In this document: positions 26,614 through 47,625 of the stretch, piece after piece
Layout: each line of letters begins with the position of its first letter
Numbering within the stretch: the first letter of the stretch is position 1
DNA from: a virus
Virus record (IMG/VR): IMGVR_UViG_3300012352_000355
Coordinates: 47,406-111,405 of that record
Direction: 5' to 3' (one strand)
Length of the DNA: 64,000 bases
The notes under the pieces: generated by a model
Seen by the model: only the letters and a program-made list of their open reading frames with translations
Told to the model about the DNA's origin: nothing
Databases searched by the model: none
Made by a program: the position numbers and the translations under genes

Positions 26614-29600
26614 ATGATTTGTCCAAATTTAAGTGATAATAAAGTACGTGCGGAGTTCACAAACCTTACTAATCTTGTAGGAGAAGACTTCGCTTACTTT
26701 GTATGGAATAGGAATGGTGGCTATCCTCTAGACAAGAAGGTAGTTACAGTAAAGGGGAAAGAAACAGTAATTGATAATCCTTTATACAATCATTTCTTAG
26801 GCTCTTACAATAACGTAAAGCAAGCAACTCTTGCTACTAGTATTTATTACAGTAAGAAGTTACAGAAGAGTAATCCTGGATTTGATAATCTTCCTATACA
26901 AGAACAGGCAAACATTATCCATGACTTTGTACAAGAGAATGAAACTTTAGAAAAAGCTTCTGAAAGAGTAATGAGATTCATTGCTCAAGGATTTAAAGCA
27001 GAACGTGTATTAGATGAATCTATTAGAAGAGTAGCCTTTGACGAAGCACGTAAGATAGCTAACGGAAGACAATTACTTGACTCTTATGTTTGGTTTAAGA
27101 CTTCGCCTCTTTCTTTGTTTGTAGATTTTGCAAACATGCAGAACAAGGAGGAAAGTTCTTTTGCTACTTGGACTAAGTCAGCAATTACTTTATACAAAGG
27201 ATCTGATTACTCAGACCTTTATCACGAAGGTTGGCACGAATTTACACAGCGATTCATGACTAAGGAACAAAGAATTGCTTTGTACCAGTCAGTTAAATCA
27301 AGACCATCTACTGCTCTTATTAATGGTGTTCAAGTTCCTTACTATGCTTTGACTAGTCGTCAAATAGAAGAAGTACTTGCAGAAGAGTTTAGGTCTTTTT
27401 CTTTGAATAAGTCTAATCCTGAAGTAGTTGTTCCTAGAATAGAAGCTCCTGTAAGAAACTTGTTTCAAAAGATCTGGGATTTCTTAACAAGTATATTTAA
27501 TGCTTCACCTCAAGAGATTGCTTCTAGACCTGCAGAAGAAGTACAAGACGGTATAACTGCTTTGTTTGAAAAACTCTACGCAGGTAAAATATATGAGTAC
27601 ACGCCTAGTGTCACTAACATTAGTGAGAAAGTATTAAATAGAAACAAATCTTTTCAGATTAACTATGTAGCTAAAGACGGAAGAACAATTCCATTTGAGT
27701 ATAATGCTTTAGAAGCTGCAGAGATCTTTAGTGCTATTGACTTCTTCCTAAGTAAGGCAATGGATGACTTTAAGACAAGTGATGGTACTAAGATTAAGTT
27801 AGAAATGTCTTTCTTGTTGAACAAAGATCTTAAGCAAGTATACTTGCCTCAACTATATGAAAGTGCTAGAAACTCTATGTTGCAGTATATCAGTGCATTA
27901 GAGGAAGAAGCAACTACTGCTGACGAGGCTACTGCAGAAGTACTTAAGCTACGTGTTAAAAACTTAAAAGGATTAGTAGTAAGAACTGCAGCAAACGATG
28001 GTTGGGCTACTGTAGTAGAGAATCATCAGAGAGCATCTAAGGGTGGAGTATTTTACTTAGAAGAGAATAAGAAGTCTTACGATGTAGACAACCGAATAGA
28101 TGATCAAGATGAATCAGAGTTAAGGAGGGACAGTAGAAGTTTTGCTAACGCAGAAGACGTAGACCCTATGTCTCTAGCTTCTCCTGAGATTCTCCAGTTA
28201 ATTAAGATTCTTCCTGGAACATACTATAACTCTTTAGGAGAAATGGTTACTGCTACAGGTCCTTCATTTGGATTACCTCAGTCAGGTGATTTCTTAAGAA
28301 ATAAAAACTTAGTCTTAAGTAAAGTAAGTGGGTCAATTTCTTACGAAGAGGCTATACAAAGATTAGAGAATACATTAGATATTGCTCCTCAGTTAAGACA
28401 ATTAATTGATAGACTTCCCCCTACTGATACTTCTTTAAGTCTTTCTCAGCTCGCACTTAAATCTCAGTTTATGCAGTTTGCTGCAATGCCTACGGTATAT
28501 CCTTACGAGATCAAATCTTTGGTGCAAAATGAATTGTCTGCTGTAACTAAGAAGAAAGAAAAACGTCTGGAAACAAAAGCATTCTTAAACAATACTCTTT
28601 CTCAAGACAAACTAATAGAGTTCTTTGATCAAGACTTTGTAAGTAATAGACTACGTAAGTATAGATTAATAGATCCTAAAGAAATAGATCTAGCAGTTTA
28701 TGATAGGGCTAGTGTACTATCCGACTATAGAGCTTACACAGAGAATGGATTCACTTCTGATCAAGTTGCTTTTGAATTCTTAAATGATGCCTTTGGTATC
28801 AACTTAATTGCAGACAAGAATCCTAACTTATTGTTTAATAAGCGTGGAGAATTACAGTTAGGAGTTAATCCTATCTTTACTACTACAAACCTAAGAAACC
28901 TTGTCAAGATAGCTAACAATGCTTTGTTTAAGCTGAAGCTTCTTAGCCTTATAGATTCTTCTGGGGAAAATCTTAACACCCCTACCATCTCTTATAATCC
29001 ACTACTTGCTCTTTCTTCTGATATATCTAAACAGTTGAAAGAACAGATTAAAGAACTTAAGTCGGGAGAGAAGAACAAAGTAATTAAAGAGTACTTTGAA
29101 AAACATTTTAAGGCAGCTACTCTCGACAATGAAAGAACTTCTGCTTTTTCTACTATAGAAAAACTTTATAATATCTCTAACTCTGCTTCTTACTTAAACC
29201 CAGAAGGAAACTTAGAGTACGCAGTAAGAGAGTGGAATCACTTGTTAGACTCAGCATCTAAGATTAATAATGTAAAAAACATCTACGAACTAGAAGGACA
29301 CTTAAACCCAGAGTCTAATAACTTCCTTGAGTATAGTTTAGTTATGAATGCTATGTTCCGTAAAGACGATGGAACTAGAAGGACTACTAACTCAGGTGAA
29401 GGAGTATACTTAGAGGTTTTAAACATGTCAGGTTTTACTATTGGTAAAACTAGAGGAGATAAAACAACTAACTTATCTGGTGACGGAAAACTCTTACAAG
29501 ACTTCCTTTCCTTTATTCAAGACGCTACCATAGAAAACATGAGGGTAGGAGCAAAGTCTAGTTCTTTTGCTACACGTTTGTCTGGAAACAGAGGAGAAAG

Positions 29601-32600
29601 GGAATATTTTAAATATGATCAGTATCAGTTCAAGAATCAAGCTGTAGTATCTTCTGACTTTATCAGACAGATGCAGAACTACTTGAACTTTGAGGCTATG
29701 CGTATGTTTGACGACAGAGCTAAATCTACGAGAAAAGAAAAAGCTGGATCTGAGTTTATCATACTAGACACTATACTTCCACAAGACATTAAAGATAAAG
29801 TAAAGGAAGCAGTTAATGAGGCTCCTAACAAAGAGGCTCTTAAGTTGACTCTTAGGGGTATGTTTGGTTTGAGTGCTAATAGTCTCTATGGTCCATTTAA
29901 AGATGCTGTTACAGCATACTTTAAGAGTTCTGCTGATGTATTGAAAGTTTCTTTTAATGAAATCTTAAGTAAGGGAGAGTCTAAGAATCTTGCAAAAGAA
30001 TTTTATCGTATCCACAAAAAGCAAGATGGGACTGCCTATACACCAGAAGAGATAGATTCTGTTCTTCTTTACTTTACTACTAATTATTTTGCTCACCAAG
30101 TAGAAGTAATGCACTTGTTAATCGGTGATCCTTCTAATTATAAGATTAAAAATAATGAATGGAGAGAAGCATTCAAACGTCTTGGTCCTGCAATTTCTCC
30201 AGGTAAACAACCTAGATTAGACCTACAAGACACTAACTCTTGGAATACAGATCCATCTCTTAGTAGAGGACTTGAAGAAGTACAAAGAGGAAAAGGAAAA
30301 GGTAGACCCTATGATACTAATTTAAACTACGTACAGTATGAGGATATCAAAACCTTTGAGTATTTAGATGAAGTTGCTAAGTCTTCTATCAAAGAAAGTA
30401 TTAGACAAAACTATTTAGATGCTTTGATAGCAGCTAAGGGTCCTTTGAGTCCAGAGGAACTTGCAAGAGAGTCTGCTCAAATAGATTCAAATACTGATGC
30501 AGTACTAGTACAAGACGAAGAAGCGAATGCTCAGGCTTACGCAGGCTTAGACTTTATAAGATACTACTTAAATTCTATTGGAGAATGGCTTCCAGAACTA
30601 GAAGAAGCTTATAAACATGAGGTAAAGGTATTACAGGCAATTAAAAACTATAGACAATCTAACTCTACTGAAGATCTTGCTAAAGTAAAAGAGTTGGTTA
30701 GACAGAGTAATCTTGGAATACTGACTTCACTTAAACTAGGATACTATGGATCACCTACAGACTACAACAAGTACAATGTACTAGGTAAGTATTCTGTGTT
30801 CCCATTAAGTCCTTCTATGGTATTTGATACAGACTTAGAGAATCTTATGTTTGACTACCTAGACAAAGGAGTAGACATGTCTACTTTCTCTAGTGGTAAT
30901 AAGATGTCTCTTCCTGTAAACGAAATGGCTTTTTATAATTCTGTTGAGTTGAATGGTAAAAAGATTCCAGTACCTAATGCAAATGGAGCTTTAGAAGTAA
31001 CTAAGGTAGATCCTAATCTTATTGTAAGACTTCCAATAGACGGTCTCCGTAGACAACAGTATATTGCTCCTAAATTTAAGGGAGAAGCAACTTTGTCTAC
31101 TCAGATGGTTAAGTTAATTTTCTCTAACTTTTTTGTATCAGGTAAGATTAACCCTAAGTATGCACACATTCAAGATAAGATAGAAGCTTTACAAGAGGCG
31201 TTTATTAATAACATTAAAACTATTGTAGAGGTAGAGAAAGCAAAAATCTATTCTAAGATTGGAGCAACTGTTAACGCAGAAGGAAAATTAACTAGCATTA
31301 ACACAAAAGACTTTACTAACTGGTTACATAGAGAGTTTGATAAGAAGGAAGTACCTAGTTCTGTCTATGACTTTATTAGACCTTCTAATAACAATCAGTT
31401 TGTATTTTCATTGGATGCAGGAGTACAAAGATCTCTCATAGACCAAATCATCTCTAGTGCTTTGTCTAAGCGTGTATTGAAACCTAAGATGTTTGGTGAG
31501 GCTTATATTCAATTGGCTTCTTCAGGATTTAACAAACTAGGTACTCGTAAACAAAAGCCTACTGTTGATGAGATCAAGACTATATCAAAAGAATTCAATG
31601 TAAGCGGTTTAAGAGACTATCGCATTGAGGATGGTGTAACTCAACCTGCTGATGTTTTGATTCCATTTAACGCAAAGAAACATGCTCCCTTGCTTAATTT
31701 AGTTTGGAACGGAGAAGTTATCGGAACACTAGATAGACTTAATGACGCACTAGATGATCCTCAGTGGGTTAAGACACACTCAGCTAAGATAACTCTTGTA
31801 GGTGTACGTATTCCTGTACAAGGATTAAACTCTATGGAGTACTTTAGAGTACGTAGATTCTTAGCAACTGTAGGTGGTCCTGTAATGGTTGTACCTCCTT
31901 CAATCGTAACTAAGTCTGGATCTGACTTTGACATAGATAAATTGTTTATGTACGAGCCTGAACTTGATGAGAATGGAGAGTTAATAGTTAACGCTGAACT
32001 AGCAAGTGCAGAATACAGAGCTAAGATTATTGAAAACATCCTAGACAAAAACACTTACTTAAAAGGTAAGGCACTTTTTCTAGATAACTTGTTTGATTCA
32101 GAAAGCTTTAGGGAAGCAGGCTTAGTATCTAAAGAGATTGATTCTATTAAGAAAATGATCTCTGATCTAAAGGGTATTAAGACTTCTGGAGAAGAAGACG
32201 ACATAGCTTACTTTAAAGAGAACATAGGTCCTTTGAACATGAAGTTAGGTATTGCTATTGAAAGATTTAAAACTTTACGTAACCAAGATCCTAATGTTGT
32301 TCAGTTTCTAGAAAACTTAGCACAGTACAAAGAAGTTCTTTCTGAGATGGAAAACATTTCAGAGAAACTGATAAAGGGTTCAGCTTCTAACAATATGATC
32401 TCGGTAATATCTGGTGTATTGTCTGAAGCTTCTATTTACTCAGAGTTTACAAAACCCAACGTTAATAAGATTCTTCCTGAGATTGCTAGAGAGTATCAAG
32501 CACTGAAGGGCAGAGATAGTAAGATTGACTCTAGTGCAATGTTCTTGATTGAGACTTCAATAAGAATCTTTACAGAAAACAACTTGGGTAAGAAGTCTTT

Positions 32601-34989
32601 AGGTGTAGATGCAAAGACAAACGCTTTACATAAATTGTTCCAACAAGTAGGTTTAAGATTTGCTTCTAATCCACAGAATATAGACATTAATTCTTTCTAC
32701 CTACTTAAGTCAAACAAGAATCCTGACACAGGTGAGATTGAGTTGGGGGGTCTTTACGATGCTGATGGAGTTAACTTAATCTCTGATGTAATCAACGAGT
32801 TTATTAATGGTCACGTAGATATCGAGAAGGAAGACTGGATTAACTTCTTTAACGCTGATAGAGAACGTACTCCTTTAATTCTTCAAATGGTACTTAACGG
32901 TACTCCTGTAAAGGACGCTATCTTACTAGTAAACCAACCTATCATTCAACACTATATTAGATCTAGTAAGATTACTAAAGTAGGAAAAGCATTGGGTCAA
33001 AAGTCAGCAAGCTTATTTAAAGACTATATTACCCCTGCAATGAATTACTTAGACATTACTCCAGTAACTGTAGATGGTATAGTAGACGAGGCTGCTACTG
33101 TAGAAAAAGTACTTAGCATGCCTTCTATCAATAAGGCATTGTCTGCAGAAAACTTTAACAAAGAAAACTTTGCTCCTAATCCTTACGTAAGACGATTTGC
33201 TTATGATAAAATTAAAGCAAATAGAAATACTCCTGAAGGTCAATCTGCACTAGAAGCTCAGTTAGCATTTGCTGCTCAGTATTATGTTGTTAAAGAACAG
33301 AATAAAGTCTTGTTAGAGTTAACTAGTAATATTGACTTTAACACTTCTTCATACCGTATCAACACAGAGTTTTATGCAACTACTCAAAACATTAAAGTAG
33401 CTGCTCCTAACTTTGCAGCTGAAGGGTTTAACAGAATACTAGAATCAAGTGTAGTAGCTCCTTTTAATATTCTTGAGGACACTGAAAAGCTTATTGACCA
33501 GGTTTGGGACTTCTTCTCTATAGAGGAGATTAAAGAACACCTATACAACGTTAAACAATCTTACGGTAAATACTGGGGTAGAGATGAATCTGTTACCAAT
33601 TACAATCAGTTGGTTAACTCTTTTATGTTGTCTTTTATTCAGAACATTCCAAGCCTTAAGTCTTTTCAAGATAACTATGGTATTAGTTCTGGCTTATTTG
33701 ATTTAAAATCTGCTAATAACTTAAGAACTAGATTCGATAAACTGTTTTCAAGTACAGAAGACAAGACTCTTAAGAGATTTGCCGAGAACAACTTAATCTT
33801 AAACAACTTTAGTCCTATAAGTATACCTGATAGTAATTATTTCTATCCTGGTATGATTACAAATGAAAAGGACGTAGATACAGTTAATGCTGCTCAAAAA
33901 GCTTTCTCTGATGGTTTGAATCATCCTAACCCAGAAGTATCTAAGTTCTTTAGGGACTTAGCTAATGGTGTACTTGTATCTCAAGGTTTTAATATTAAGT
34001 ATCGCTCAATCCAAAACTTTATTCCTTTAGAGGCAAAGAGCGACTTAATGATAGAGTTGTCTATTGCTCTTAAGAAAATTAAGATAGGCTTAAGTAAGCC
34101 AGTAGAAGAGATGACAGAAAAAGACAGTGAGGACGCTATGGCATTTATGAGTTTGCTTGAAAGTACTACCTCTATGCATGCTAATCTTTATTGGCCTTCT
34201 AAGGATAACGATTTCATTCCTACTGCTTATATGAAAGCCTTTCCTAACTTTAAAGAAGAGGAAGCAAAGGCTGTTACTACTGAGAAGAAAAACTCAAGAG
34301 TAACAAACCAAGATGACTTGGACGAAGCAAAACTTTATGCTCAGCAGTTTGACAATGATATTCCTTCTATGGATGAACTAGACGAAGAACAATTAATAAC
34401 TAGGAGACTAATAGCTAAAGGCAAAACTGTTCCTGCTAAAACTCCTGCAACTTCTGTATCTACTAATGTTAATCCTGCAAGTAATAAGATAAACATCTAT
34501 GCAGGAGGTAAAGGAGAGAATGCTGAGTTAAGTAATTTTGCAGTAAGGCCTTTTTCTGAAACTTGGGATCTTTCACCACTAGGTATGGACTCGGAAACGT
34601 TAACTTTTAATACGGTAGAGGGAGCATTCCAGGCTACTAAGATTTTGTATAGTACCGATCTAAAAAATTATGATTTGTTACCACAGTTTCAAAAATTATC
34701 TGGAGCACAAGCAAAAGCATTAGGTCAAAAAATTAAAGGATTGGATACAGAAGCATGGGATTCAAACTCTTCTGTAGTAATGAAAGATTTAATTAAAAAG
34801 TCTTTTGAACAAAATCCAGATGCTCTTGCTAAACTTATTGCCACAGGTAATGCCACCCTTACTCACACACAAGCTAAACGTAAGTGGGCTAAAGAATTTC
34901 CTAGAATCCTGATGGAAGTAAGGGCTGAGTTAAGAGACAATAACCTAGAAGGATTTGATTTTGAAGTAACTAAGTGTATCGTAGATTGA
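26614..34989 (+). CDS. Virion-packaged double-psi-barrel RNA polymerase with N-terminal zincin and C-terminal NADAR domain
   Basis: Catalytic GSDFDIDK (DFDID starts at 31924) preceded by RIPVQG; HEGWH...EEVLAE zincin motif at 27223; C-terminal LSNF...TVEGAFQATK...AKALG...WD...VMK...FEQNP...LIATG...LMEVR. Confidence 0.88.
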   Translation: MICPNLSDNKVRAEFTNLTNLVGEDFAYFVWNRNGGYPLDKKVVTVKGKETVIDNPLYNHFLGSYNNVKQATLATSIYYSKKLQKSNPGFDNLPIQEQANIIHDFVQENETLEKASERVMRFIAQGFKAERVLDESIRRVAFDEARKIANGRQLLDSYVWFKTSPLSLFVDFANMQNKEESSFATWTKSAITLYKGSDYSDLYHEGWHEFTQRFMTKEQRIALYQSVKSRPSTALINGVQVPYYALTSRQIEEVLAEEFRSFSLNKSNPEVVVPRIEAPVRNLFQKIWDFLTSIFNASPQEIASRPAEEVQDGITALFEKLYAGKIYEYTPSVTNISEKVLNRNKSFQINYVAKDGRTIPFEYNALEAAEIFSAIDFFLSKAMDDFKTSDGTKIKLEMSFLLNKDLKQVYLPQLYESARNSMLQYISALEEEATTADEATAEVLKLRVKNLKGLVVRTAANDGWATVVENHQRASKGGVFYLEENKKSYDVDNRIDDQDESELRRDSRSFANAEDVDPMSLASPEILQLIKILPGTYYNSLGEMVTATGPSFGLPQSGDFLRNKNLVLSKVSGSISYEEAIQRLENTLDIAPQLRQLIDRLPPTDTSLSLSQLALKSQFMQFAAMPTVYPYEIKSLVQNELSAVTKKKEKRLETKAFLNNTLSQDKLIEFFDQDFVSNRLRKYRLIDPKEIDLAVYDRASVLSDYRAYTENGFTSDQVAFEFLNDAFGINLIADKNPNLLFNKRGELQLGVNPIFTTTNLRNLVKIANNALFKLKLLSLIDSSGENLNTPTISYNPLLALSSDISKQLKEQIKELKSGEKNKVIKEYFEKHFKAATLDNERTSAFSTIEKLYNISNSASYLNPEGNLEYAVREWNHLLDSASKINNVKNIYELEGHLNPESNNFLEYSLVMNAMFRKDDGTRRTTNSGEGVYLEVLNMSGFTIGKTRGDKTTNLSGDGKLLQDFLSFIQDATIENMRVGAKSSSFATRLSGNRGEREYFKYDQYQFKNQAVVSSDFIRQMQNYLNFEAMRMFDDRAKSTRKEKAGSEFIILDTILPQDIKDKVKEAVNEAPNKEALKLTLRGMFGLSANSLYGPFKDAVTAYFKSSADVLKVSFNEILSKGESKNLAKEFYRIHKKQDGTAYTPEEIDSVLLYFTTNYFAHQVEVMHLLIGDPSNYKIKNNEWREAFKRLGPAISPGKQPRLDLQDTNSWNTDPSLSRGLEEVQRGKGKGRPYDTNLNYVQYEDIKTFEYLDEVAKSSIKESIRQNYLDALIAAKGPLSPEELARESAQIDSNTDAVLVQDEEANAQAYAGLDFIRYYLNSIGEWLPELEEAYKHEVKVLQAIKNYRQSNSTEDLAKVKELVRQSNLGILTSLKLGYYGSPTDYNKYNVLGKYSVFPLSPSMVFDTDLENLMFDYLDKGVDMSTFSSGNKMSLPVNEMAFYNSVELNGKKIPVPNANGALEVTKVDPNLIVRLPIDGLRRQQYIAPKFKGEATLSTQMVKLIFSNFFVSGKINPKYAHIQDKIEALQEAFINNIKTIVEVEKAKIYSKIGATVNAEGKLTSINTKDFTNWLHREFDKKEVPSSVYDFIRPSNNNQFVFSLDAGVQRSLIDQIISSALSKRVLKPKMFGEAYIQLASSGFNKLGTRKQKPTVDEIKTISKEFNVSGLRDYRIEDGVTQPADVLIPFNAKKHAPLLNLVWNGEVIGTLDRLNDALDDPQWVKTHSAKITLVGVRIPVQGLNSMEYFRVRRFLATVGGPVMVVPPSIVTKSGSDFDIDKLFMYEPELDENGELIVNAELASAEYRAKIIENILDKNTYLKGKALFLDNLFDSESFREAGLVSKEIDSIKKMISDLKGIKTSGEEDDIAYFKENIGPLNMKLGIAIERFKTLRNQDPNVVQFLENLAQYKEVLSEMENISEKLIKGSASNNMISVISGVLSEASIYSEFTKPNVNKILPEIAREYQALKGRDSKIDSSAMFLIETSIRIFTENNLGKKSLGVDAKTNALHKLFQQVGLRFASNPQNIDINSFYLLKSNKNPDTGEIELGGLYDADGVNLISDVINEFINGHVDIEKEDWINFFNADRERTPLILQMVLNGTPVKDAILLVNQPIIQHYIRSSKITKVGKALGQKSASLFKDYITPAMNYLDITPVTVDGIVDEAATVEKVLSMPSINKALSAENFNKENFAPNPYVRRFAYDKIKANRNTPEGQSALEAQLAFAAQYYVVKEQNKVLLELTSNIDFNTSSYRINTEFYATTQNIKVAAPNFAAEGFNRILESSVVAPFNILEDTEKLIDQVWDFFSIEEIKEHLYNVKQSYGKYWGRDESVTNYNQLVNSFMLSFIQNIPSLKSFQDNYGISSGLFDLKSANNLRTRFDKLFSSTEDKTLKRFAENNLILNNFSPISIPDSNYFYPGMITNEKDVDTVNAAQKAFSDGLNHPNPEVSKFFRDLANGVLVSQGFNIKYRSIQNFIPLEAKSDLMIELSIALKKIKIGLSKPVEEMTEKDSEDAMAFMSLLESTTSMHANLYWPSKDNDFIPTAYMKAFPNFKEEEAKAVTTEKKNSRVTNQDDLDEAKLYAQQFDNDIPSMDELDEEQLITRRLIAKGKTVPAKTPATSVSTNVNPASNKINIYAGGKGENAELSNFAVRPFSETWDLSPLGMDSETLTFNTVEGAFQATKILYSTDLKNYDLLPQFQKLSGAQAKALGQKIKGLDTEAWDSNSSVVMKDLIKKSFEQNPDALAKLIATGNATLTHTQAKRKWAKEFPRILMEVRAELRDNNLEGFDFEVTKCIVD

Positions 34990-35036: not shown

Positions 35037-38000
35037 ATGCCAAACGGTTGTGTAATAAAATATCCTAATCCCGTAACTGGGATGAATCAAACTTCAGTAC
35101 TTGCCTACACTCTTTCTCAAATGGGGTACAGCACTGAAGAATCGATAAACTTAGTCAAAAGAGGCAGTACCTATTCTAAGAAGAATGGGTACAATGCCTG
35201 GCCTAAGCCTATTAACAGACCTGAAGCACGCTTTGGTAACTTTATAGAAATAGACTCAGACAATCTTGTAGCTAATTTAGGACTAGACTCTGTACTTAAA
35301 CCTTCACAGGTTAGTTATATGAGAGCTGCTCAAGATTTGTTTGAAGATGTACAGGTAAGGGTGGATGCTCCTATTAACTTAAAACTGTTAATGGAATTAG
35401 GAAACTATGTTAAGAAAGGAGGAGAAGCTTCTCTTAAGATAGAAGTAGTTAATCCTGAAGCACCATTAATACAAAGGATGTATAAAGTATATCCTGTTCC
35501 TGCTACTCCACTTAACCGTGAGTATTTATTTAGTTTCATTGAGACAGAAATATTTAGCAAGAACGTATCTATTGGAAAAGAAACAAGACTTGATTTCTTA
35601 AAGCCTTATATAGATTTCTCAGAGCCTGATATCTATGATACAATGGCTAAAATGCTAAACGATTCTCAGACACCTGCATACGAAAAGTATTTGATTAAGA
35701 AACTACTTCCTATGATGGACTTAGTTCCGAGTATTACTTTTGACTTCTTTACAGGCTCAGACATTCTTCAGGTAGAAAAAATTCCTGCAGGACAATACAA
35801 TAGAGAGTTTAATAATATAAAATTAAACGTATTTGGACTTAAGAATGGGGATATGTCTAGTGCTAGGAGACTTATTCTACACGAAGTACTTCACTCTGTA
35901 CTTTCTTCTGCTATTGACAATCCTATTAGCGAGGTAGACAAGAAACTAGTCAATTCTTTAAAGCCAGTATTAGCTTATTACAGGCAGAAATATTCTAGCG
36001 AAAAGTTTACAAATGAGTATTACGGTTTACAAGATTTACATGAGTTCGTATCTGAGTTCTTTACTAATCCTGAGTTTAGAGACTTACTAGAGTCTAACGA
36101 TAGTAACTGGTTCTTAAAGACAATTGATGCTATCTGGAAATTCTTTACAGGCAAACTTCTATTAAACAAGAACGTAAATACTGTAGAGAACATAGAACAA
36201 ATTCTAGAAGATATCTTTAACGATATTATATACTCTCAAGAAATCAATACGTCTCTTACCTATACTAATACTTCGAAGTTTGAATCTCCTCTAAGCTTCA
36301 ATCAAATGCTTGAGATAGATAAGTTTACTGAGAACAACTCTGAACTTTTATCTGAATTCTCGGCTAACCTAGATAGATTACTAGCAGAAGATAACTTGCT
36401 TAACTGGTCTAAGATTATAGATCAAGCAGAGTTCTTAGGAGTAAACGTAAATAGTGTACTAAGAACAAAAGATACTTTCGTAGAGATATCTCCTGCTGAA
36501 GCAAAAGAATCATTTAAATCTATGGTTACATTCTTCCACGAGACTGCTAAGTATCTAAGAAGTATACGTAACTCTCTTGATAAGTTAGCTGCAGATCCTA
36601 ACATAACAGCTGACCAAGTATTCAGACAGGCTTATCATGCTAAGGAACTAGGAGAACAATACATAAACTTTGTAGAGAAGTACAGAGAAGTAATGGGTAA
36701 CATAGGTATAGATACTATCCTAGGAATCCAACTTCTTAATATAAAAAGTACTGCAGACTCTTTAAAGGAAGCGTACTTGAATAATGCAACTGAGGCTTTG
36801 GCTATTAAATTAGCAGATGAGTTTGCTCCACAAACTAAAGATGCTCAGAAACGTATCCAAGAAAACATTGAAAGATTTAAAGTTAGTTTGGCGAGTGCAC
36901 AAAGCCTAGGTAACGCTAAACTTATAAAGCTTACTGAAGATAGAATCAAGAACGAAGAGGCTCGCTTACAGAGTCTTGCTACAAAGTCTAATATCATTAC
37001 TGCTCTTAAGGGACAGATTAAAGACATAGGTAACTTCTCTTTATTCTTAGAGTCAGCAGGTCTCTCAGGAAACGTAATTACTGGTACAGTAGGTGGTATG
37101 ATTGCTAACCAATTTGATTCTGCTAATGTTAAAGCACAATCTATGGAGGTTAAACTTAAAAGATTAGCTGATGAGTTACAAAACCACTTGAAGAGTAAGG
37201 GTGTAGGAGTAAACACTTCTTTTGATTTTGAGAATGTTTTCGGAAGATTTCTTAAGAAAACTGAAGTAGTTGAAATGAAGAATGGTAAGATTGCTAAGAG
37301 AGACACTCTAGTCCTACTTAGTGAGATGGATGAGGTTCGCTACAACAACGACTTGATTAAACTAAAACAAGAATTAAGAGATCTCAAACAAACTAAAGTA
37401 CAAGACTCTGCCGTAAAAGATCTTATTAAAGCTAAGGAAGCACAGATAAGAAACTTTAAACAACAGTACGAAGAACAGCCTTACCAAGAAGTCTATTACC
37501 AAATCCAGAATATGTTAAGCTCAGAAGCAAGAGAAGCTAGAGACTTAATACTTCAAGAGATGGATAAGATTCAAGTAGGTAGTTTGAATGAAGAGAACTC
37601 TGAAGAACAGTTAGATAAACTAGAAGATCTCAAAGAAGATTTAGATCGTTTGGAGTCTGATTACGATAAAAACAAAAACTTAAAAGACGAAGAAGGTTTA
37701 AGAATCGCAGCTAATATAAGAGAGTGGAAGAGGAGTAGGACTGCTGCTCAACTCTACACCTACAATATCACTAAAGAAAATCAGGAACTCTTTGATAGCC
37801 AACTTATTGCTAAGAAGAACGCTTACGATAAAGCTGTATCAGACTACGAACAGTCTTTGTCTGAGAAAGCAGATCCAGAAACTCTAGATTATAAAAAACA
37901 AACTGCAGAGTATTATAGAAAACAGTTTGAACTTTGGAAAGCTAACAACTGTGTTAGGAAGATTAGTCCAGAATTCTACAAAAATAGAAAGCAAATAACT

Positions 38001-40835
38001 GATTCTATTGCTGCTATTCAGGGTAGATACCCTCTCCCTGACGGTGTACGTAAGATGGATGTGGTATGGGGAGAATTGTTTGACGTACTTAAAGGCTATA
38101 AAAATAGTGATAACTTTTATGAAGGCTCTAAGATTTCTTCTCCTAACGAAGACGGAACCCCTTCTAACATCTCTGCCATTGTAAGAAGCCTAGAAGAAGA
38201 GATTGAAGATATTAAAACAGTCTACAAGAAAGAGAACAAGATGTCTAAGGAAGATCAAGACGCTCTTACAGGGTTGTTTGCAAGCTTCTCAGATATTCAA
38301 GAGAAGGTTTATACTCCAGACTATATAAAAGAATATACAAGTCGCTTAAACGCTGTTAAAACAAGTCTTATAGCAAAAGACTCTACAAGATACCAAGATC
38401 AATCAGACGACTCACTTCTTAAACTTGATGCCGAGAAAGAACTTAGAAAGACAGAATGGTACAAACAAAACCACAAGAAAGTAAGTGTATGGGACTCAGT
38501 AAACTCTATTTGGACAAATACTGATGAGCCTTTGTACTTCTGGACTGCTACTGAACCTACTGATAAGACTTTAATTAGCGACACTTCTCCTTCTTTTAGA
38601 TGGAATACAATCGCAGTTAATCCTATCTATGTAAGACCAGAGATCAAGAATGTAAGATATAGTAAGCGTGTTCCTTTGCGTACAGATAAAACAGATTACA
38701 GAAACAAAGAGTACGACAAACTAGATACCAAAGAAAAAGAAATCTTAAAGAAAGTAACTGATATCTACTTAGAACTACAGAGTGGTACTCCTATGAATCT
38801 TAAAAAAGGATTAGAGTTACCTAGTGTAGTAATGGATGCTACTGAAAGATCTCTTAAAGGAACAAACTTGGGTACACTTAAGTCTAAGATATCTTCTACA
38901 GCACAATCTATCTGGGACAAAGCAACCTTTGAGGATGACGAAGAGGTACAAAGAGATACTGCTGGAACAGTTATGCAAAAGGTAAATAGAAAACTTTACT
39001 TAAAGTATAATAGACCTATCCCTGCAGATAAGATGAGCTTAAACATATTCAATAGCATTGCTATGTATGGAGCAGATCTTATTAGATTCAAAGAAGCTTA
39101 TGCAGTAGTTCCTTACATCTATGGTATTCAAGACGTATTAAATAAGTCTATGCCTGGAAGTAAGATTGAAAAGATGATTAGCAACTTGTTTGAACGTAAG
39201 TTACAGGGTAAGAGTCGTAAGTTTATAGTTAATAATAAAGCAGGAAGACTTGTAGAGAAAGTAGTAGATACAGCTTTAGCAGCTAACTCACCTATTACTT
39301 TGGCTTTCCGACTTCCTTCAAGTGTAAAGAACTTTATGGCAGGTTCTGCTAACGTATTTATTCAAGCAGAAATGTATGGTTTGAGTCGTAAGGAAATCTT
39401 TAAAGCTATGGGTAAGAACTCTGTGCACATAGCAGACTTGTTTCAGTCAGAAGTAGAGGATGGTAGGGACTCTGAGTACATCTCAAAGATGCGTTACTTT
39501 AACGTAATGCCTGACGATCAACTTTCAGAAACAGGTAGAAAAGTATTTATATCTAAGCTAGGCAAATACCGTAAGTACAATCCTTTTAACTTCCTTGCGT
39601 TCTTTAGAACATTTGGAGAATTTGAAATGAGAAGTGCAGTAGCCGAGGCCCTTTCTGAAAAATTTCTTATACCTCTTACAGATAAACCTAACGGAGTACC
39701 ATTGTTTGAGGCTTACGACTTTAAGGATGGAGTGCTTGTTCCTAAAGAAAGTATTATTGATAAAGAAGGTTTTGAGAAAATAGAACAATACTACAGAGGA
39801 AAACTTAACTTTATTAATGCAGCTATACAAGGTGCTTACGGATCTTTAGATAGAGGAGAGTATTCAAGATATACATTAGGTCGTATTATTGGTAACATGA
39901 AAGGGTGGGTTGCTTACCAAGGTATGAGAAGATTTAAAACGAGTAGAAGTATTAATCCTAGATCAGGAGAAGAATTCCAAGGATTCTACACTACTGCTAT
40001 ACAGGCAATTAAACTTCTTTATCAAACAAACTTCTCTCTTCCTGCAACTAAAAACCTAATGACTCCTCAAGAGAGAGCAGAGGTAGAAGGTGCAGCCATA
40101 GATATGTTAGTACTGGCTGTGATTATGGGAGTATCCGCTATTCTTAATAGTATAAGATACGATGATGAGGACGAAGAGGATATGTATATTGTATATTTCT
40201 TTCTTTACAACTTGTTGTTGATTGAAGATGAATTAAACAGTTTGAACCCTGTATTTAGTCCTTTGTCTATCTATCATTCTAGATTTGAGAATAATGTAGA
40301 TGGACAGAATTTTGCTCAATACTACTTGAACAGAAACGTTCTTCTTCCTTTTGCAGGAGCTACAGATGCACTTAAGTTAACTATGGAAATGGTTAATCCA
40401 TTTGATGATGTAAGTCCTTTTGATGAGTACGTACCTCGTAGTAAGAGTGGTAAAATTTCCAACCCAAAGAGATACCCACCAGATCCCACACTTAAAGGAG
40501 ATACAGAAATTTCAGCAAGAATACAAAAACTATTTGGATTGAATGCTTCTATCAACTTCTTTTTAAATCCTGAATACCTATTTAGAAAGTATGAGAAATA
40601 TAATCCTAAGTGGTACGTAAGTAGTCTGGATGCAGATTTAAAATCAGAAAAAAGATCTATCAATTCTATAGACAAACAAATTAAATCTATAGAAAGACAA
40701 TATGACTACATAGATGATCCTGATACTAGACAGAGTCTTATGAATAAAGTAAGCGACTTAGAGAGGCAGAAAGAAGAATCAGGAGAAAGACAATCTAGTT
40801 TAACAGAAATATATTCAGAGACTGGGAGGAGGTAA
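35037..40835 (+). CDS. Large cargo protein with a zincin-like metallopeptidase motif and C-terminal hydrophobic helices
   Basis: 1932 aa; LILHEVLH (35880) followed by EFVSEFFTNPEF; long coiled coils; C-terminal MLVLAVIMGVSAIL and YIVYFFLYNLLL. Confidence 0.7.
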   Translation: MPNGCVIKYPNPVTGMNQTSVLAYTLSQMGYSTEESINLVKRGSTYSKKNGYNAWPKPINRPEARFGNFIEIDSDNLVANLGLDSVLKPSQVSYMRAAQDLFEDVQVRVDAPINLKLLMELGNYVKKGGEASLKIEVVNPEAPLIQRMYKVYPVPATPLNREYLFSFIETEIFSKNVSIGKETRLDFLKPYIDFSEPDIYDTMAKMLNDSQTPAYEKYLIKKLLPMMDLVPSITFDFFTGSDILQVEKIPAGQYNREFNNIKLNVFGLKNGDMSSARRLILHEVLHSVLSSAIDNPISEVDKKLVNSLKPVLAYYRQKYSSEKFTNEYYGLQDLHEFVSEFFTNPEFRDLLESNDSNWFLKTIDAIWKFFTGKLLLNKNVNTVENIEQILEDIFNDIIYSQEINTSLTYTNTSKFESPLSFNQMLEIDKFTENNSELLSEFSANLDRLLAEDNLLNWSKIIDQAEFLGVNVNSVLRTKDTFVEISPAEAKESFKSMVTFFHETAKYLRSIRNSLDKLAADPNITADQVFRQAYHAKELGEQYINFVEKYREVMGNIGIDTILGIQLLNIKSTADSLKEAYLNNATEALAIKLADEFAPQTKDAQKRIQENIERFKVSLASAQSLGNAKLIKLTEDRIKNEEARLQSLATKSNIITALKGQIKDIGNFSLFLESAGLSGNVITGTVGGMIANQFDSANVKAQSMEVKLKRLADELQNHLKSKGVGVNTSFDFENVFGRFLKKTEVVEMKNGKIAKRDTLVLLSEMDEVRYNNDLIKLKQELRDLKQTKVQDSAVKDLIKAKEAQIRNFKQQYEEQPYQEVYYQIQNMLSSEAREARDLILQEMDKIQVGSLNEENSEEQLDKLEDLKEDLDRLESDYDKNKNLKDEEGLRIAANIREWKRSRTAAQLYTYNITKENQELFDSQLIAKKNAYDKAVSDYEQSLSEKADPETLDYKKQTAEYYRKQFELWKANNCVRKISPEFYKNRKQITDSIAAIQGRYPLPDGVRKMDVVWGELFDVLKGYKNSDNFYEGSKISSPNEDGTPSNISAIVRSLEEEIEDIKTVYKKENKMSKEDQDALTGLFASFSDIQEKVYTPDYIKEYTSRLNAVKTSLIAKDSTRYQDQSDDSLLKLDAEKELRKTEWYKQNHKKVSVWDSVNSIWTNTDEPLYFWTATEPTDKTLISDTSPSFRWNTIAVNPIYVRPEIKNVRYSKRVPLRTDKTDYRNKEYDKLDTKEKEILKKVTDIYLELQSGTPMNLKKGLELPSVVMDATERSLKGTNLGTLKSKISSTAQSIWDKATFEDDEEVQRDTAGTVMQKVNRKLYLKYNRPIPADKMSLNIFNSIAMYGADLIRFKEAYAVVPYIYGIQDVLNKSMPGSKIEKMISNLFERKLQGKSRKFIVNNKAGRLVEKVVDTALAANSPITLAFRLPSSVKNFMAGSANVFIQAEMYGLSRKEIFKAMGKNSVHIADLFQSEVEDGRDSEYISKMRYFNVMPDDQLSETGRKVFISKLGKYRKYNPFNFLAFFRTFGEFEMRSAVAEALSEKFLIPLTDKPNGVPLFEAYDFKDGVLVPKESIIDKEGFEKIEQYYRGKLNFINAAIQGAYGSLDRGEYSRYTLGRIIGNMKGWVAYQGMRRFKTSRSINPRSGEEFQGFYTTAIQAIKLLYQTNFSLPATKNLMTPQERAEVEGAAIDMLVLAVIMGVSAILNSIRYDDEDEEDMYIVYFFLYNLLLIEDELNSLNPVFSPLSIYHSRFENNVDGQNFAQYYLNRNVLLPFAGATDALKLTMEMVNPFDDVSPFDEYVPRSKSGKISNPKRYPPDPTLKGDTEISARIQKLFGLNASINFFLNPEYLFRKYEKYNPKWYVSSLDADLKSEKRSINSIDKQIKSIERQYDYIDDPDTRQSLMNKVSDLERQKEESGERQSSLTEIYSETGRR

Positions 40836-47187: not shown

Positions 47188-47625
47188 TTAGGTTAGTTCT
47201 GGTACTTCCACTCCCAGTATTTCTCTTGCAAAGGTAATAACATCTTGGATAAACTTATGAACTTCTTCCTTCTTTCCCTTAGAAAGTGAGAGAGGAGTTT
47301 TGATGAATTGACCTTGAAACATAATCTCTTCGTAGAAGTACTTGTCCTTAAGGAAAGTCACTACGTCTTCTTTGGTATATACTTCCCCTGTGAGAGACTC
47401 AAATCCTCCTCGGATGATAGGTACTAGGGTACTATAAAAATAAGCCAACTGAGGGTTTGTTTTCTTTGAGTCAATTCGTGTGATACAAATCTCTACATCT
47501 ACTTTTGGATCTTGTTTCATAAGTTCTCTAAAATAAGTCTGCATTAGTTCTCTGTCTCCCTTAAGATGGACAGTGCCATCTATGTTGAGAGACAGAGATG
47601 CAGGAATGTAAACTCTATTTATCAT
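47188..47625 (-). CDS. NinB/Orf-like recombination protein
   Basis: KTNPQLAYFY...LKDKY...SLSKGKKEEVHKFIQDV...LGVEVP pattern. Confidence 0.55.
   Translation of the reverse strand: MINRVYIPASLSLNIDGTVHLKGDRELMQTYFRELMKQDPKVDVEICITRIDSKKTNPQLAYFYSTLVPIIRGGFESLTGEVYTKEDVVTFLKDKYFYEEIMFQGQFIKTPLSLSKGKKEEVHKFIQDVITFAREILGVEVPELT

Follow-up and report, generated by a model that had tools for sequence, protein, structure and literature searches.

The stretch analysed here, called the window, is 64,000 nucleotides of DNA corresponding to positions 47,406 to 111,405 of the IMG/VR virus record IMGVR_UViG_3300012352_000355, a record of 111,405 bases with a completeness estimate of 94%. The window contains a single stop-free open reading frame (ORF) encoding a crAss-type virion RNA polymerase (RNAP) of 2,791 amino acids, designated P0001, which carries a NADAR domain in an exchangeable slot close to its C-terminus. 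The ORF was flanked on the same strand by ORFs of 1,992 amino acids (upstream) and 1,932 amino acids (downstream). Megablast of the P0001 gene against 50,697 phage records returned zero matches, and the phage is therefore distant from all deposited genomes. The features referred to below, in positions of the window, were as follows.

26614..34989, + strand: virion RNA polymerase gene P0001, 2,791 amino acids, single stop-free ORF with C-terminal NADAR cassette, homologue of phi14:2 gp66
30001..32943, + strand: conserved two-barrel RNAP core, residues 1130-2110 (AlphaFold2 model, Foldseek top match 6vr4)
31924..31938, + strand: DFDID catalytic metal-binding motif, D1771-D1775, aligned to gp66 1361-DFDID-1365
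34414..34485, + strand: low-complexity linker AKGKTVPAKTPATSVSTNVNPASN from RNAP body to cassette, low confidence in the model, left swap breakpoint just after GKTVPAK[T/S]P
34447..34938, + strand: exchangeable cassette, residues ~2612-2775, NADAR in P0001, delimited by comparison with the homologue P0164
34486..34944, + strand: folded NADAR domain, residues ~2625-2777 (Pfam PF08719; phrog_1017, phrog_652; AlphaFold2, Foldseek and VIA-align)
34618..34641, + strand: VEGAFQATK with catalytic Glu2669 and Lys2676 (equivalent to PnNADAR E43/K50 and T4 AdfN E36/K43), invariant in 150/150 subfamily domains
34864..34887, + strand: HTQAKRKW, with His2751 (third catalytic position, phage type; invariant in 150/150) followed by the phosphate-loop motif with A2754 and R2756
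34939..34986, + strand: conserved C-terminal tail NNLEGFDFEVTKCIVD with Cys2788, kept beside different cassettes in relatives
35037..40835, + strand: downstream gene of 1,932 amino acids, homologue of phi14:2 gp65, an RNAP-associated virion protein (BLASTP E 1e-16)

The NADAR domain and the polymerase that carries it

The initial annotation, made from the letters of the DNA, had read a NADAR domain fused to the C-terminus of a virion RNA polymerase at 34486-34935, which corresponds to P0001 residues 2625-2774. The strings on which this reading was based (LSNF, FNTVEGAFQATK, AQAKALGQKI, WD, VMKDLIKKSFEQNP, LIATGNATL, and ILMEVRAEL) were all present in P0001, and both the low-complexity linker ahead of the domain and the near-terminal Cys (C2788, nucleotides 34975-34977) were as described. 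Profile searches bore the assignment out. The Pfam NADAR profile PF08719 (gathering cut-off 35.1 bits) matched residues 2635-2755 with 52 bits (E 1.3e-13) when the isolated C-terminal piece was searched, and with 44.1 bits, likewise above the cut-off, when the whole of P0001 was used. The domain also matched phrog_1017 and phrog_652 of PHROGs, both of function unknown, and PADLOC returned only a weak match to the candidate family PDC-M42C (26 bits) and no DarG model. Residues 2608-2791 were modelled with AlphaFold2 (AF2) from a 33-sequence alignment, giving a predicted local distance difference test score (pLDDT) of 87.2 and a predicted template modelling score of 0.81. When the model was searched against the PDB with Foldseek, NADAR structures were the only matches at E<0.1, namely YbiA (2b3w, 1.7e-6), the Phytophthora PnNADAR-ADP-ribose complex (8bau, 1e-5), and the NADAR of G. 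lovleyi (8bat). VIA-align ranked 8bau highest (Z 16.9, root-mean-square deviation 2.8 Å over 149 residues), followed by 2b3w (Z 14.7); the DarT1-linked NADAR of G. lovleyi was the weakest of these three solved NADARs (Z 9.3), and the next, unrelated chain reached Z 2.1. Residues ~2625-2777 are a genuine NADAR domain, with a resemblance far beyond chance. Explanations by chance resemblance, ORF mis-calling, or frameshift were rejected, as the ORF is continuous and three sibling contigs, obtained from other samples, encode the same fusion.

The catalytic Glu and Lys of NADARs have been defined by mutagenesis (E. coli C7 E88/K95, PnNADAR E43/K50, T4 AdfN E36/K43), and the third residue, on the last strand, differs by type: Glu in YbiA-like NADARs, Asp in those linked to DarT1 (C7 D171), and His in those of phages (PMC11543638, PMC11125620, PMC11257639). 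All three positions were found in P0001. The segment with E2669 and K2676 aligned with SEHYFQAQK of YbiA and LEGFLQGCK of T4 gp30.3, and H2751 (LTHTQ) lay directly after the last strand of the model, aligned with the His of T4 gp30.3. Among 150 subfamily domains taken from giant and short homologues, the Glu, a Gln, the Lys, one Gly, and the His were invariant. The domain was 27% identical to T4 gp30.3 with the three catalytic residues all aligned; the Pfam profile Phage_30_3 (PF08010) stayed below threshold (20.9 bits versus a cut-off of 36). With His at the third position and PF08010 below its cut-off, the domain represents a distinct His-type subfamily and not a gp30.3 orthologue. The nearest NCBIfam model was the riboflavin N-glycosidase TIGR02464, with 41.5 bits against an equivalog cut-off of 73.7; given this score and the His in place of Glu, the domain is not a riboflavin-type equivalog. 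The initial annotation had called it DarG1-type, which did not hold: by its residues the domain is a phage-type (Glu/Lys/His) NADAR, and its fold is nearer to YbiA and the Phytophthora NADAR than to the DarT1-linked one. The impression that the DxxWG segment is shortened proved correct, in that the subfamily consensus QDKGKWGxEFPRLLMEVR has a short loop after the Trp, and the Pfam match covers profile positions 9-125 of 163 only, ending at 125. The P0001 copy of this segment reads QAKRKWAKEFPRILMEVR.

The carrier is a crAss-type virion RNA polymerase. In tblastn searches, residues ~1128-1841 matched proteins named putative RNA polymerase or RNAP catalytic subunit in crAss001, crAss002, and many uncultured crAss phages (22-28% identity). 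Pairwise BLASTP of P0001 with phi14:2 gp66 gave a colinear match (E 5e-8, residues 1138-2112 versus 847-1655) that paired TKSGSDFDIDKLF with TKTGSDFDIDKMY and placed DFDID 1771-1775 opposite the catalytic residues 1361-1365 of gp66; the three Asp of this motif were invariant across 39 homologues. The AF2 model of the core (residues 1130-2110, pLDDT 83.7) had the phi14:2 virion RNAP (6VR4) as its Foldseek top match (E 3.5e-24, query-normalised template modelling score 0.59), followed by QDE-1 and cellular beta-prime subunits. A phmmer search of whole P0001 against PDB sequences did not reach 6VR4, whereas pairwise BLAST and the fold search did connect them. The order of the polymerase gene and the gp65-like gene equals the g066-g065 order in phi14:2. 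The upstream 1,992-residue ORF had no significant similarity to phi14:2 gp67, so synteny rests on gp66 and gp65 alone. gp66 is a virion protein that accompanies the DNA into the cell, where it transcribes early genes, and polymerases of its type use single-stranded or denatured templates in vitro (bioRxiv 10.1101/2020.03.07.982082). By homology to phi14:2 gp66, P0001 is most likely packaged and injected as well.

HExxH motifs were observed in both proteins. One (YHEGWHEF, nucleotides 27223-27237, residues 204-208) lies in the N-terminal part of the polymerase, where 48/118 relatives have YHE.[WF]HE; the other (LILHEVLHS, 35880-35894, residues 282-286) lies in the gp65-like ORF and aligns with ELILHEIMHD of phi14:2 gp65. 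gp66 itself has no HExxH, and the two regions had no Pfam match. Judging by the motif, both may be zincin-like metallopeptidase sites.

The exchangeable C-terminal slot

A search with the RNAP core yielded 280 homologues. The closest, P0164 (2,981 amino acids, from a cluster of 16 member sequences), was 98.2% identical to P0001 over P0001 residues 1-2623, and the two proteins had their last 16 residues (NNLEGFDFEVTKCI[V/I]D) in common. Between these parts P0164 has 354 different residues (DUF7831 and a SLOG/DprA-like part, AGIGSR...GADKAF), as opposed to the 164-residue NADAR cassette of P0001. The breakpoints, set at the protein level, lie just after GKTVPAK(T/S)P on the left and just before NNLEGFDFEV on the right, and the cassette they delimit (nucleotides ~34447-34938) coincides almost exactly with the interval of the initial annotation. 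Among relatives with 68-70% identity in the body (2,600 amino acids), the slot held cpYpsA-type SLOG only (L010, L011), NADAR only (P0102), NADAR plus about 200 amino acids (P0002), NADAR with cpYpsA-SLOG and DUF7831 (L016, L017), or DUF7831 plus more than 1,000 amino acids that had no Pfam match (L008, L015, P0165, P0166). At ~46% body identity (P0169-P0173 and P0175, 2,583-2,613 amino acids) it was essentially empty. The cpYpsA-type SLOG (GGQTGIDEAGAKAG) and DUF7831 cassettes, which occur singly or in train with NADAR, were located at L016:10621-12372, L017:10681-12444, L010:10699-11535, and L008:10687-14304. A PDB sequence search with the DUF7831/SLOG part of a relative gave zero matches, and DUF7831 has no PDB sequence relative.

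The tail was kept beside these different cassettes, reading ..DFEVTKCIID in P0164 and ..EFE[IV]TKCRED or ..DFEVTKCRED in P0002, P0165, P0166, P0167, L016, and L017. The similarity of the NADAR domains did not follow that of the bodies: compared to P0001, P0002 was 64% identical in NADAR and 73% in the body, and P0004 was 62% identical in NADAR and 27% in the body. This fits cassette exchange and not vertical descent. Percent identities were used for this comparison, as a FastTree phylogeny of the NADAR domains had very long branches and served as a hint only. The initial annotation had suspected a swappable payload slot just inside the terminal Cys, and these comparisons confirm it.

A pentapeptide, TQPST or TQP[ST], was observed in the C-terminal regions of several relatives (P0002, P0016, P0018, P0102, P0164, P0165, P0168) and stood at cassette junctions, as on the flanks of NADAR in P0016 and of SLOG in P0168. 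Giant proteins contained it 28 times against 0.3 expected, an excess of about 90-fold. From its placement it could be a recombination-favouring linker or a processing site. As a general feature of the slot it was dropped, since it was present in about 25/239 giant proteins and not in P0001.

The cysteine in the tail belongs to a wider pattern. P0001 has Cys3 (26620-26622) and Cys2788, and the solved phi14:2 gp66 has exactly two cysteines, C3 and C2179. Among 121 RNAP-core homologues, a Cys was present within the last 8 residues of 113 and within the first 8 of 104, and the total was exactly two in 95; in NADAR-bearing giants a Cys was found in the last 8 residues in 115/121, with a chance expectation of about 0.7%. 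The giant polymerases are thus nearly cysteine-free, yet one Cys is kept at either end.

We found that this NADAR subfamily recurs in 801 proteins of 1,535-4,885 amino acids. Of the best 120 of these 801 giants, 98 also matched the P0001 RNAP core, and NADAR usually lay in the last quarter of the protein, sometimes near the N-terminus. Short NADAR hits of 101-322 amino acids numbered 40 only; most were on contigs of 1-2 kb and are therefore fragments. A scan of genome contigs for NADAR found two contigs of metagenome-assembled genomes, one of Dehalococcoidia (8.4 kb) and one of Bacteroidales (6.1 kb), both probably phage fragments that were binned with these genomes and of no use for assigning a host. 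Among deposited Crassvirales, NADAR was N-terminal in cr126_1 gp003 (2,402 amino acids, annotated as DUF1768 domain-containing protein), lay in gp48 of cr131_1, the gene immediately upstream of the polymerase homologue, was part of the 6,386-residue cr272_1 gp23, and in cr130_1 fell in a gene carrying the annotation DprA-like DNA recombination-mediator protein. Partners on the same polypeptide in relatives included RecD-like helicases, ART-PolyVal (ART, ADP-ribosyltransferase), an AlkB-like 2-oxoglutarate-Fe(II) oxygenase, DUF1848, and zeta-toxin-like kinases. In the 120 closest RNAP relatives, Pfam found DUF7831 in 11, NADAR in 10, AlkB-like PF13532 in 5, and cpYpsA (SLOG) in 3; 92 were without any match.

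Proposed role of the tethered NADAR and its alternatives

We propose, at a probability of roughly 0.6, that P0001 is a virion-packaged, host-injected crAss-like polymerase whose tethered NADAR erases base ADP-ribosylation from incoming DNA or first transcripts. The polymerase would be packaged in the virion and injected with the DNA into the host. The slot between the flexible linker and the Cys-bearing tail would hold interchangeable effector cassettes, in this phage one NADAR, and this predicted ADP-ribosyl-nucleobase N-glycohydrolase would enter covalently tethered to the polymerase. If a host ART modified guanine or cytosine in the entering DNA or in the earliest transcripts, the tethered NADAR would strip off the ADP-ribose and so keep early transcription from being blocked. 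Judging by its conserved residues and relatives, the P0001 NADAR is most likely a hydrolase with a nucleic-acid substrate. The family takes ADP-ribose off guanine in DNA (PMC11543638) and off guanosine in RNA (PMC11833690), and certain members also take it off cytidine (PMC12945103). DarTG1 defence is neutralised by each of three unrelated phage NADARs, T4 AdfN, Bas32, and Bas60 (PMC11257639), and T4 AdfN is an active ADP-ribosyl-guanine hydrolase that defeats DarTG1 (PMC11257639, PMC11125620). The partner domains, AlkB-like dioxygenase, ART-PolyVal, and SLOG, would fit a theme of base repair and NAD/ADP-ribose conflict; the co-occurrence of AlkB-like base repair supports a nucleic-acid substrate, and that of SLOG keeps a soluble ADP-ribose-type substrate alive.

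Several results weigh against the proposed role, or against its original form, in which DarT1 was the specific target. In one study the T4 NADAR did not rescue DarT1 toxicity (PMC11125620). NADAR was present in only 10 of the 120 closest polymerase relatives and is thus dispensable for polymerase function. To our knowledge, all cultured crAss-like phages infect Bacteroidota, a phylum that may include the host of this phage, and DarT was surveyed in 301 genomes sampled evenly from it. The DarT profile PF14487, which may be less sensitive for DarT1, matched in 23/301 genomes. At 12/12 loci examined (L021-L032, in G014, G042, G072, G082, G083, G088, G119, G129, G131, G139, G168, and G283) the gene next to DarT encoded a Macro-domain protein, which is the DarTG2 type. 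Of five genomes with weak DarT hits, one has a NADAR, with 240 kb between it and the closest DarT hit, and the DarT loci examined did not include any DarT-NADAR pair. DarTG2 modifies thymidine, and thymidine ADP-ribosylation is not reversed by NADARs (PMC11125620). Near P0001 itself the neighbours are giant virion proteins, and the DarT profile found no toxin alongside, a weak negative. With DarT next to Macro at every locus examined and no DarT-NADAR pair, a specific anti-DarT1 role is not supported. The countered ART may be another guanine- or cytosine-directed enzyme, and the sample suggests a host enzyme yet to be discovered.

Further points of this kind concern the copy of NADAR in P0001, whose loop reads QAKRKWA, with D2754A and S2756R in a conserved loop. 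Column 2754 is Asp in 145/150 domains with P0001 the sole Ala, and R2756 is unique to P0001 among the 150. Three siblings from other IMG/VR samples (L007, L009, L014), which differ from P0001 at 21 positions (99.25% identity) and also carry this NADAR cassette, keep D2754 and S2756. When P0001 was compared with L007, body codons 1-2619 had 107 synonymous and 16 non-synonymous differences, and the last 172 codons had 2 and 5 (Fisher p = 0.0012 versus the body), a replacement excess that rests on 7 differences only and would reflect either relaxed constraint or diversifying selection. From these substitutions the P0001 copy could be weakened. Taken further, the NADAR of this genome would be a decaying or functionally altered passenger, a copy with its activity lost or changed in an otherwise functional family. 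We consider this improbable, since the ORF is intact, E2669, K2676, and H2751 are retained, and a replacement excess is equally expected from an arms race. In addition, D130 of PnNADAR, roughly equivalent to D2754, contacts the pyrophosphate via water only (PMC11543638), and active T4 AdfN has Ala at the column aligned with 2754 and wholly lacks the D..W motif; D2754A therefore need not inactivate the enzyme.

The remaining alternatives concern the substrate and whether there is one. The NADAR cassette might act on soluble molecules derived from NAD+ or ADP-ribose (immune signals, toxic by-products, or NAD salvage intermediates) and not on DNA or RNA, and such a role has been put forward by Iyer et al. 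for most phage NADAR, Macro, and SLOG domains (PMC9503650). Consistent with it, the same slot in relatives holds cpYpsA-type SLOG, alone or beside NADAR, and SLOG is a predicted binder of nucleotides or ADP-ribose derivatives (PMC9503650); the fold is nearest to YbiA and Phytophthora NADARs and not to the DarT1-linked type, and no DarT1-NADAR system was seen in the sampled Bacteroidota. We nevertheless regard a soluble substrate as unlikely. Each phage NADAR tested so far, namely T4 AdfN, Bas32, and Bas60, removes ADP-ribose from DNA with specificity for guanine (PMC11257639). The tether to a polymerase and the AlkB-like co-occurrence suit a nucleic-acid substrate better. Except for riboflavin intermediates, we know of no soluble ADP-ribose substrate demonstrated for NADARs. 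A different thought is that NADAR is the antidote to the phage's own ART: with the host under attack from an injected ART, NADAR would shield the phage's DNA or RNA. Some distant giants do combine both (in P0008, NADAR at 386-519 and ART-PolyVal at 1054-1209), but most NADAR-bearing relatives have no ART, and ART-PolyVal, cpYpsA (SLOG), Macro, and DarT (PF14487) profiles detected nothing in the 111-kb record (estimated 94% complete), a negative that is weak for ART-PolyVal, cpYpsA, and DarT, which gave no signal in control genomes either. With no other recognisable ADP-ribose-network domain in the phage, an antidote role is unsupported, and we hold it to be very improbable. Equally slight is the prospect that the domain is a non-enzymatic packaging, plug, or docking module, or a YbiA-like N-glycosidase of riboflavin intermediates. 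Its location beside the conserved tail could serve assembly, and TIGR02464 is the nearest NCBIfam model; that model, however, stays below its cut-off, the invariant catalytic triad argues for an enzyme, and the slot is empty or filled with unrelated domains in relatives, so that NADAR is not structurally required.

The erasure of base ADP-ribosylation by a tethered NADAR might also be part of a larger scheme, which we offer as a tentative and rather doubtful extension. The C-terminus of crAss virion RNA polymerases would be a dedicated, fast-exchanging array of anti-defence cassettes (NADAR, SLOG, DUF7831, AlkB-like, ART, and others) between a conserved linker and a single-Cys tail; the near-universal lone cysteines at both ends of these proteins of 2,000-4,800 amino acids, gp66 included, would link or anchor cargo proteins during packaging or ejection, and the tethered NADAR would act in cis, clearing ADP-ribosylated bases from the single-stranded template on its way into the polymerase. 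If this were true, near-isogenic phages differing only in the cassette would have different host ranges.

Significance and relation to known systems

The action of AdfN against DarTG1 was shown only recently, and those phage NADARs are free proteins made after the onset of infection. A NADAR built into the first-entering protein would have the antidote in place before phage gene expression. crAss-like phages are very abundant and hard to culture, and their counter-defence repertoire is almost unknown. Polymerases that are 98% identical and differ in the cassette only are a natural experiment with exact domain boundaries, and offer a direct route to which host defences select NADAR, SLOG, or DUF7831. 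If the relevant host ART is still to be found, the cassettes could be bait for new defence systems.

In the open-access literature, no paper was found that combines crAss or Crassvirales with NADAR. A crAss genomics paper (PMC7886860) has no mention of NADAR, DUF1768, or YbiA, and Iyer et al. 2017 (PMC5512222) has no mention of NADAR, SLOG, or crAss-like phages. Viral NADARs were described in 2022 as typically standalone, in an account that did not mention crAss-like phages (PMC9503650). New here are the near-isogenic (98%) cassette swap, the D2754A/S2756R changes with the replacement excess, and the DarT survey.

Compared to phi14:2 gp66, P0001 shares the DFDID motif, the two-barrel core fold, colinear sequence, the gp65-like neighbour, and a Cys at residue 3 and near the C-terminus. 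gp66 differs in its length of 2,180 amino acids and is about 20% identical to P0001, aligned through the polymerase body only; a tblastn search of phage records gave no NADAR match for gp66, and the NADAR cassette of P0001 is therefore an addition. T4 gp30.3/AdfN and the other phage anti-DarTG1 NADARs resemble the P0001 domain in their Glu, Lys, and third-position His and in the expected early action on nucleic-acid ADP-ribosylation (PMC11257639, PMC11125620). T4 AdfN, however, stands alone as a protein of about 150 amino acids that is expressed early, whereas the P0001 NADAR is a C-terminal cassette that would arrive pre-made, and its subfamily has its own QDKGKWG motif, unlike T4 AdfN. DarG1 belongs to the same superfamily and fold, with Glu and Lys kept and with K2701 of P0001 at the position of C7 K115 and Pn K75 (PMC11543638); it differs in its third residue, Asp in place of His, and in being the only one of the two with a DarT partner.

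P0001 also has a functional likeness to polyvalent proteins, giant virion-associated proteins with variable effector arrays that are presumed to be injected (PMC5512222), a family defined by architecture and not by homology. NADAR, SLOG, and ART have been placed in one conflict network, and the packaging of NADAR, Macro, and Nudix domains in virions has already been proposed (PMC9503650). P0001 differs from these systems in its carrier, a crAss-type two-barrel RNAP, and in having a defined C-terminal slot for the exchange.

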